In this document: one piece after another, positions 14,201-16,900 of the stretch
Numbering within the stretch: position 1 is the stretch's first letter
How the letters are laid out: the number at the start of each line of letters is the position of its first letter
IMG/VR virus record: IMGVR_UViG_2724679238_000014
Coordinates: 1-16,900 of that record
Source of the DNA: a virus
Lineage: Duplodnaviria > Heunggongvirae > Uroviricota > Caudoviricetes
Direction: 5' to 3' (one strand)
Length of the DNA stretch: 16,900 nucleotides
Program-made: the position numbers

Positions 14201-16900
14201 GAATCGTTTGAACGGATAGATCACCAAGAATACCGACAAATTCTAGCAGAAACAGAGCAGGAAGCTCATCTGAAAAAATTACGAGCCATGAAAAGGAAAT
14301 AGAGAATGAATAAAGCATTTGAGCTATGGGTACGCCAGCGTTACGGCAATCGCTATGACCTGACGCGAGACGTTGACGGCTTCTACTGTCGTGAAGTTGT
14401 GAGGCGAATGCTTGAAGTGTGGTGCCACTGCCGTGGGCTGAATGTTGTATGAGGTGAACTGTGGGGCTGGATTGCGTACCTATATCAACCTACTGCCGCA
14501 ACGCAGGAGAAACGGTTGATGCCGTTAACAAACGGATACAAAGAGGAATATGGAAAGAAGGGGTACATGTATTAAAAGTCGACGGAGTTAAAGAACGTTG
14601 GGTCGACTTAATGGAGATTACAAAATGGGCAAGAAAAAACAAGGATCACTATCTCTCCCTAGAGGAGTAACTATTCGCCAGCATAAAACTGGTAGCACTC
14701 TGGTTATCACTTTTACATATAAAGGGGTTCTGTGTCGGGAGCCCCTCTCCAGAATGGAAGTAAACGCGCGCGGTGTGAAGTACGCCGAGCGTCTGCTGGG
14801 AGAAATAAAAAATCAGATTATCGATGGTACCTTCGAATATGCCAAATACTTCCCCAACTCCCAAAAGCTGGAGTTGTTCGGGGGAGTGAAAAAAAACAAA
14901 AATATAAAATCTTACCTGGATGAATACCTGATTATCTGTCAGAACCGTAACCTGTCACCGTCGACAATTAGAGGTTATGAAAAGTGCCTGTCGGCGCTGT
15001 CAGCATTGCATAAATTTCATGTATCAGAACTGACACCTGCAGTACTCAAAAACTGGATCGCCAGCAGAAAAACAAAACTGAAAACGATCCGCAATAATCT
15101 TTCATTTCTGCGCAGCGCAATAGATGAAGCGGTGACCGATGGTTTGTTAACAATAAATCCTGTCACGCTAGTCAGCGCCAGCCGGTATCACGTATTGGAC
15201 AACACACCAGGCAGTGATGATTACGAGGTCGATCCTTTTACACCCGCGGAGACGGCAGCAATCTATGATGCCTGTCATTACCCGGAATGGCGAAATCTGT
15301 TTCGTTTTGCCTTTAATACTGGGCTGCGCAGCTCAGAATTGTGCGCGTTGCGCTGGACGGATATAGACTTCATCAGCAACACCGCGCATGTTCAGACTGC
15401 AAGCGTAGTCGGGGTAATCAAAAGCACCAAAACAAAAGCCGGCACCCGCAAAGTGCAACTGAACAGCGAAGCGCTGGCGGCTCTTCAGGCACAAAAGCCC
15501 TACACGGCGCTAAAGAGCGACTTCATATTCAGCGATCCGAAAACTCGCGCCCCCTGGGCAAACGCAGATGCGATCCGAAAAAAAGCCTGGGTACCAACCC
15601 TTAAAAAAGCTGGTGTACGCTATCGCAATCCGTACCAGACACGCCATACGTTCGCCACTCGGCACATTAGCCAGGGCGTTAACCTGTTCTGGCTTGCTGG
15701 TCAGATGGGGCATAAAGGACCGGAAATGCTGTTCAGACATTACGGTTCTTACCTTGCAGAATACGATGGAAAAACGGCGATTTCTGCAACCCCGTAACGG
15801 CAAAATATTTCAAAATGTTGTACAGAATCAGGACGTTACCGGGACAACAATATGTACGTAAAATGCACATAATGCCTTGCGTGAAAAAATAAATCTTTCA
15901 TATTCAAAATATTATGTAAATCCCGATCTCGGGTTCAACTCCCGCCAGCTCCACCAAACATTGATACACTAACGTTCAGTGAAGTTCACTAAGCCCGTAC
16001 AGCACAAGCTCTGCGGGCTTTTTTACGTCTATTGTCATCCAGTGAGAATTGCTGAGAACCACGACTTATGGCACCCTTTTTGGGCCCCAACGGAAAGGGT
16101 CCAAAACTTGAGGGAACCAAATGGCAAAACTCGCAAAAAAAACTTACTGATACTGAAATCAAAAATACCAAACCCGGAGATAAGGAAATCAACCTCTTTG
16201 ACGGAGATAGATTGCGACTATAGTCATCTCACTGAGGTTGTACTTGCTCGCAGCTTCAAAAAATTCTTCTCCCTTTTGCCCTTACATGAGATCACAGATA
16301 TATCCTGTAATCTTTCCTGACGATATCCCCTCATAGAGAAGCCCGTTTCTTTTCCCGTACTGCCATATATATTCAATCGGATATGTGTCACGCTGTAATG
16401 CTATTATTTCTATATTGTTGCCACTCCCTGCGGAACCTCACTGTAGAAATTAAACGCATAATGATTATTATTACCACCATCCCCCTGCTCCATAAACTCC
16501 CCAAAGATGATTGTTTTGGCTATTTGATGGTGTTGGCAAATGATAATTGACAATGTTATAGATGATATCTCCAGCACTCTGATAATTTATGGATTATTCA
16601 TCTCCTGTTCATGCAAAATTTTAATTTTTTTAGCCACTTAAAAATCGCCCATAAATTCTTCTGAATCCCAGTAGTGGTAAGTGATGTAACACATCCATTC
16701 AAACTTGTGATACATCTCAAAAAATTGGTTGGCCAAAATCGCTATTTATAGAAGAGGCGCTCATGAGGCGTGCTCTTTTTTAAAGCGAGGAAATACCAAT
16801 GAAAGAGAATAAAATACAGAAAATCAGTAACAAACTGATTAACATCGTTGTTTTCGTTGCAGTTGTTGAATACGCCTATTTATTTCTCCATTTCTATTAA

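Follow-up and report, generated by a model that had tools for sequence, protein, structure and literature searches.

A displaced ssrA 3′ end and a putative island scar at the right border of an Stx2f-converting prophage of Escherichia albertii

Introduction

What does a short copy of the 3′ end of the tmRNA gene, ssrA, represent when it is found at the end of a phage sequence and is followed by the beginning of a second integrase gene? The question is raised by a viral DNA stretch of 16,900 nt (IMG/VR record IMGVR_UViG_2724679238_000014, positions 1 to 16,900), here termed the window. A first-pass annotation had proposed that the ssrA copy is the core of an att junction and that two elements occupy the tmRNA gene in tandem. 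Tandem arrays at tDNAs, with ssrA as the most enriched target, are reportedly described in "Traffic at the tmRNA gene" (Williams, 2003). Here the junction is compared with related phage, satellite and chromosomal loci, and the two parts of the proposal are treated in turn.

The Stx2f prophage and its integration genes

The element upstream of the core is an Stx2f-converting lambdoid prophage. Its StxA sequence agrees at 315 of 319 positions with the A subunit of Stx2f from phage phi467, which identifies the prophage toxin as Stx2f. Near the right end of the prophage are two overlapping genes on the + strand, and regulatory and replication genes, as well as stxA and stxB, are situated leftward of them. 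The excisionase gene xis (14461-14670, 69 aa) matches the PHROG excisionase family phrog_2917 (E = 1.5e-40) and overlaps the start of int (14625-15797), an intact gene encoding a phage tyrosine integrase of 390 aa with the Pfam domains Arm-DNA-bind_2 and Phage_integrase and matches to PHROG integrase families. Integrase and excisionase genes thus adjoin the att site, as is expected of an island at a tDNA. Among public assemblies, 93 indexed blocks contain the exact 390-aa integrase, and 487 relatives are found in IMG/VR.

Two additional features of the prophage were noted. Genes for tRNA-Thr(TGT) and tRNA-Gly(TCC) are found at 2121-2274 on the - strand, downstream of stx2f and between stxB and a holin gene; the annotations of phi467 and of strain STECUZB006 show the same placement. 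In the Rha/Ash antirepressor region, adjacent Rfam matches to C4 antisense RNA (82.8 bits) and isrK (63.7 bits) are present at 8829-9017, also on the - strand. The pair suggests a C4-controlled antirepressor module of the P1/P7 type.

The window is 100% identical, over the comparable 12.3 kb, to the E. albertii draft contig BBVZ01000003 (locus L008 of our collection), which begins inside the prophage. It is 99.9% identical over 12.3 kb to the complete E. albertii genomes CP043254 (strain RM15112) and CP126908 (strain 2014EL-1348). Carter et al. (2023; PMC10673567) include both strains among the stx2f-positive E. albertii and report that ssrA, the commonest site, holds the main cluster of Stx2f prophages of this species. 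Exact-pattern scans of a collection of species-representative genomes gave no match to a 41-mer of the stub/spacer junction or to a 37-mer of the ssrA-downstream spacer, two features described below. These failures are likely due to single-nucleotide differences in the representative genome, e.g., gatGgattg for gatAgattg.

A displaced 3′ end of ssrA forms the att core

The core, CGGGTTCAACTCCCGCCAGCTCCACCA, is located at 15930-15956 on the + strand and starts 133 nt past the int stop codon. As reference for alignment the annotated ssrA gene of E. coli EC42405 was used (L001, 3665-4027), and the K-12 gene was also compared. All 27 nucleotides of the core are identical to the 3′ end of ssrA, which is one base more, with a start one base earlier, than the last 26 nt beginning at 15931 that the first-pass annotation had assigned to this gene. 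The sequence covers part of the T-stem, the T-loop, the 3′ acceptor strand and the CCA, and it has the orientation of ssrA. To the left of 15930 the window and ssrA part ways in the alignment, and the DNA there is of phage origin; to the right of the core the window continues as ssrA-downstream DNA. A 16-mer taken from the core occurs once in the window at up to three mismatches, where 0.07 occurrences are expected.

This is a fragment and not a working gene. ARAGORN detected no complete tmRNA, with tRNA-like domain and tag reading frame, in the window. The Rfam tmRNA model scores 19.8 bits compared with a gathering score of 47, and the posterior probability is high only over the core, at the 3′ end of the model.

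Between the int stop codon and the core lies the phage-derived P arm of attR (15798-15929, + strand). In the stretch compared upstream of the core, the arm does not differ among L003, L004 and L006-L011, which encode the identical integrase and differ in their right flanks; in L005 the arm is shared from the int stop codon up to that locus's own junction. Eight loci with the identical integrase beside the ssrA core display three unrelated types of flank after CCACCA. As the phage arm is identical in the stretch compared but the eight loci show three unrelated flanks, the phage/host boundary is placed at the core. The right boundary of the Stx2f prophage can therefore be set at 15956, and the DNA beyond it, including the integrase stub described below, belongs to the host backbone and not to the prophage.

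The integrase is not always found at ssrA. In two E. albertii drafts (GCA_027566595 and GCA_027566695; L005, at 11306-11330, and L012), a prophage with the identical 390-aa integrase is situated elsewhere, with neighbors that resemble ygbJ, ygbI, pphB and mutS. The insertion is in the 3′ end of a probable ygbK (otnK) homolog. The junction, CGGGTTCACCTCCCGCCA|CGATAAAG, differs from the ssrA core by one mismatch over 18 nt, and the site has the appearance of a secondary attB within a protein-coding gene.

The opposite prophage end

The first-pass annotation had predicted that the displaced core would be matched by an intact ssrA at the opposite prophage end. This arrangement is seen in two complete E. 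coli genomes that carry homologous prophages and in which both ends can be read, "numer 3" (L013) and the Stx2f strain STECUZB006 (L014). The order in both is smpB, an intact ssrA of 363 nt, the prophage, int, the 27-nt core and a P4-type integrase gene. From the 3′ part of int through the att core and into the beginning of the neighboring integrase gene, they are 92% ("numer 3") and 90% (STECUZB006) identical to the window. In "numer 3" the two ends display a direct repeat of 32 nt, with copies 46.6 kb apart. The prediction also agrees with the report on the 99.9% identical E. albertii prophages in ssrA (PMC10673567).

Viral contigs show the other products of recombination. Among 54 IMG/VR loci in which a relative of the integrase and a core were found, most have the same core, or a variant with one or two mismatches, ∼130 nt after int. 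Some of these run on into a shared P′ arm, ATCATGATTG, which marks them as attP. The predicted attL, consisting of bases specific to upstream ssrA, the core and this P′ arm, is present in 83 viral contigs; where attL contigs were tested for tmRNA, 8 of 12 have a complete tmRNA that ends at the junction. An exact scan of IMG/VR for the E. albertii type of P arm joined to the core gave no match, and E. coli types of P arm are present there.

As the flanks, the IMG/VR cores and attL sequences, the two E. coli genomes and the published sister strains are all in agreement, the segment is read as an attR with a displaced ssrA end. From these sequence comparisons it is very probable that an Stx2f-converting lambdoid prophage has integrated in the E. 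albertii ssrA gene and that the segment represents its attR, followed by the scar of an older island.

A truncated P4-type integrase gene

The second integrase sequence is a dead stub of 33 codons of P4 type (16121-16223, + strand), whose ATG at 16121 lies exactly 165 nt after the CCA of the core. It contains a run of eight A residues (A8, 16135-16142) where the intact gene has seven (A7). When one A is removed from the run, 31 of 33 codons are identical to the N-terminus (residues 1-33) of the 409-aa integrase of E. coli EC42405, which directly follows an intact ssrA and displays the domains Arm-DNA-bind_3, Phage_int_M and Phage_integrase. Residues 8-97 of the EC42405 protein match PF13356, which places sequence of the N-terminal arm-binding domain in the stub. 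Homology ends at ∼16220 and a stop codon follows at 16221-16223; the central and catalytic integrase domains are absent, and there is no integrase-like open reading frame downstream in the window.

The first-pass annotation had described this sequence as a frameshifted N-terminal fragment of a P4/CP4-57-type integrase about 165 nt beyond the core. The P4-type N-terminus and the distance are correct; the allele is not that of CP4-57, with only 19 of 33 residues identical to K-12 IntA. Among full-length proteins, the one most closely related to the stub shares 49% identity with an IntA-like integrase. Judged by sequence, the stub is of the same family as the IntA of CP4-57 and represents a different allele. 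The further statement that an integrase normally abuts ssrA in E. coli was borne out, with a homologous stretch from the ssrA end to an annotated integrase in 5108 of 5426 complete genomes.

The frameshift was considered as the inactivating lesion and was rejected, as the run is A7 or A8 depending on the strain and the gene is truncated in all. A8 is found in the window and in seven other E. albertii loci and A7 in seven more; the difference is either a true polymorphism or a homopolymer assembly error. The truncation junction, gattgcgactatag|tcatctcactgagg, is common to the window and 14 further E. albertii loci with differing ssrA occupants. It is the truncation at about codon 33 that killed the gene, and the frameshift is incidental.

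A scar in the E. albertii backbone

To the right of the stub there is an AT-rich spacer with short open reading frames only and no convincing gene (16224-16798). It is specific to E. albertii up to ∼16681; at blastn sensitivity there is no E. coli match right of the stub until query position 467, which is position 16682 of the window. The spacer is contiguous with both the stub and ykgR in L095, L096, L098-L100 and L102-L104, and it is possibly residual island DNA. The first host backbone gene is ykgR (16799-16900, + strand), an open reading frame of 33 aa with a match to Pfam YkgR and 89% nucleotide identity to E. coli ykgR. In the source species the gene order past ykgR is ykgM, ykgO, an open reading frame of 738 aa that is probably a ygaQ homolog, and glaH-lhgD-gabDT. 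As glaH-lhgD-gabDT are the neighbors of the CP4-57 region in K-12, the flank is taken to be ordinary E. albertii chromosome at the ssrA locus.

The genes ykgR-ykgM-ykgO, which include zinc-independent ribosomal protein paralogs, lie between ssrA and glaH in E. albertii (L003, L008 and L095-L104); in K-12 they are found at 0.31 Mb, beside the ecp genes and eaeH. A chromosomal rearrangement was considered for the position of ykgR near ssrA and was rejected, since ykgR-ykgM-ykgO and then glaH are regularly found in this context in E. albertii.

A look-up of the exact YkgR protein led to E. albertii genomes with other ssrA occupants, in which the same flank adjoins different elements and continues to ykgR-ykgM-ykgO and, past these, glaH. 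In six of these (L095, L096, L098, L099, L100 and L102), a complete P4-like satellite, with AlpA, Ash, a derepression protein and a 777-aa primase, is present to the left of ykgR. The DNA from ∼15937 to 16900 follows the right end of the satellite in these six genomes, at 98-99.7% identity, and the satellite/flank junction is a degenerate core, TTCAAACTCCGCCAGC(T)CCACCA. In L103 (E. albertii CP099883) the same flank, with the same truncation junction, is found right of another phage. The occupant of the site in this locus (L103, 1663-5001) has a different Arm-DNA-bind_2 integrase, of 398 aa, and an AAA_21 ATPase and RloB pair, likely defense cargo, lies between int and attR.

Strain RM9976 (CP043262; L007 and L099 overlap) shows three layers in succession: the phage int and attR, an intact P4-like satellite, and then the degenerate core, the stub and ykgR, so that the stub is the outermost. 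The satellite is 10.5 kb in length and carries int, Psu, Delta, AlpA, Ash, the derepression protein and the primase. The RM9976 Stx2f prophage has been placed downstream of serT (Carter et al., 2023; PMC10673567), and the other end of this prophage may thus be rearranged.

These loci bear on the second part of the first-pass proposal, that the Stx phage entered an ssrA already occupied by a CP4-57-like island and that the site is occupied in tandem. A recent array of this kind, in which the Stx2f phage came to lie beside a live CP4-57-like island that then lost nearly all its DNA in this strain, has precedents, as the same phage integrase does adjoin intact P4-type integrases or islands in other strains, and true tandem arrays are found in L004, L007 with L099 (RM9976), L013 and L014. 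In the window, however, the second element consists of the 33-codon stub only, and 15957-16900 contains no second ssrA fragment and no other island gene, where each member of an Islander tandem array carries an integrase and a tDNA fragment of its own. The window thus shows a prophage and a scar and not tandem occupancy. Also, the identical truncation junction recurs in 14 further E. albertii loci with differing ssrA occupants, and in RM9976 the scar is found on the right side of a complete P4-like satellite. A recent array is accordingly rated as very unlikely. As the same junction stands beside this phage, beside a satellite and beside another phage, the stub most likely represents an ancestral scar in the backbone of the species, older than the Stx2f phage; the phage most likely met a scar of ∼270 bp, shared by these 14 loci, rather than a CP4-57-like island. 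No E. albertii genome in which an unoccupied ssrA is directly followed by the scar was recovered, the nearest case being E. coli EC42405, where the integrase is intact.

The terminator hairpin and the question of a functional RNA

The scar includes a conserved ssrA-downstream spacer (15957-16120, + strand), which would be the left end of a decayed P4-type island and is now part of the E. albertii backbone. The DNA from 15957 onward begins AACATTGATACAC. From 15930 to 16213 the window is 93% identical to the EC42405 DNA that starts with the ssrA 3′ end and reaches into the gene of the integrase. A terminator-like site is predicted in the spacer, and a rho-independent terminator hairpin is located at 15991-16020 with a U-run to 16024; the fold has an energy of -23.9 kcal/mol (z = -4.6).

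The Rfam model of IsrM, a small RNA of Salmonella (RF02763), matches 15947-16024 (E = 2e-11, 45.5 bits) by its two ends only. The displaced ssrA end is aligned with the 5′ end of the model, and the hairpin with its 3′ terminator. However, the match of ∼78 nt stands against a model of 329 positions, ∼250 internal positions are missing and the score falls well short of the gathering score, which is 376; the sequence is not an IsrM gene. From the alignment, IsrM itself may have originated at the same type of ssrA-att junction.

Could the scar have been kept for a function? It is very unlikely that the 270 bp, here counted as the displaced ssrA end, the terminator and the 5′ end of the dead integrase gene, were maintained as an IsrM-like transcript or as an insulator of the ykgRMO zinc-starvation operon from read-through out of an upstream element; if this were true, the scar would be more than neutral debris. 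That the scar is retained specifically as a working RNA element, either an IsrM-like small RNA or a terminator against read-through from the upstream element, appears extremely improbable. The conservation of 98-99.7% across E. albertii strains, the strong hairpin and the partial match to both IsrM model ends would fit such a role, but the conservation is not above that expected of neutral backbone DNA within one species, no promoter-like site is found on the + strand upstream of the hairpin and the IsrM match has the shortfalls given above. It is scarcely conceivable that the 27-mer, the terminator and the stub are phage-borne, as part of attP or as a second phage integrase pseudogene; although they directly follow the phage integrase, and the phi467 phage record also extends into an "intA" gene, the flanks past CCACCA vary among hosts with the identical integrase, the flank is found without this phage beside P4-like satellites and directly after an intact ssrA in E. 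coli EC42405, and the intA beside an E. coli Stx2f prophage has been read as the leftover of another element (PMC11597368).

A proposed order of events

With the ancestral scar as the preferred reading, the following course may be proposed. The phage attP would lie just 3′ of the xis-int pair and carry a 27-nt copy of the ssrA 3′ end. A crossover mediated by the integrase inside this 27-nt block would rebuild the full ssrA at the far (attL) end and leave the original ssrA 3′ end, together with the DNA downstream of it, at attR. That integration rebuilds the target gene at one end and displaces a 3′ fragment to the other is a known principle (PMC4383910). The downstream DNA, with the terminator hairpin and the 33 integrase codons, would be the left edge of a much older island integrated in ssrA, which most likely had already been reduced to a scar of ∼270 bp in the E. 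albertii backbone before the phage arrived. Each later entrant at ssrA would then shift the scar to its right. The sequences themselves show the identity of the core, the flanks of phage and host origin, the scar common to the loci and the paired attL and attR of the homologous E. coli prophages. We infer the position of the crossover, the order of events and the competence for excision; that the scar came before the phage is the most likely order by parsimony across strains, as distinct from a dated phylogeny.

Comparison with known systems

It is established that Stx2f phages use ssrA as a site, that tDNA fragments are displaced, and that ssrA can bear tandem or decayed islands. The value of the present assignment is mainly one of annotation; it illustrates the layering of mobile elements at ssrA, which is textbook knowledge, and raises no new biological question.

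The window shares the general signature of tDNA islands, in which a regenerated target gene is present at one end, a displaced 3′ fragment at the other and the integrase inside (Islander, PMC4383910). In the same work ssrA is the most enriched target, newer arrivals adjoin the intact gene and tandem arrays at tDNAs are established. The difference from an Islander array is that the second "member" has neither an integrase nor a tDNA fragment of its own.

The CP4-57 island of K-12 also lies at the 3′ end of ssrA, which is directly followed by a terminator and by a P4-type integrase of the same orientation. Its far end is marked by a displaced ssrA 3′ fragment of 14 nt, annotated as the pseudogene psaA. 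In contrast, the E. albertii locus has a different integrase allele and a different spacer sequence, nothing else of the island is left and a second fragment comparable to psaA is absent.

The closest parallels are the Stx2f prophages described in ssrA of E. albertii and E. coli (PMC10673567; PMC11597368; phi467, LN997803), which have the same toxin subtype, target gene and xis-int-att layout. The phi467 record (LN997803; L002, 32817-38594) extends past the att core into a host-side intA island, with intA and a sensor kinase-like gene, and thus the annotated right end of phi467 is not phage DNA. The E. coli Stx2f prophages in ssrA are followed by a full P4-type integrase gene, whereas 33 codons are left in E. 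albertii; otherwise, nothing essential differs between them.
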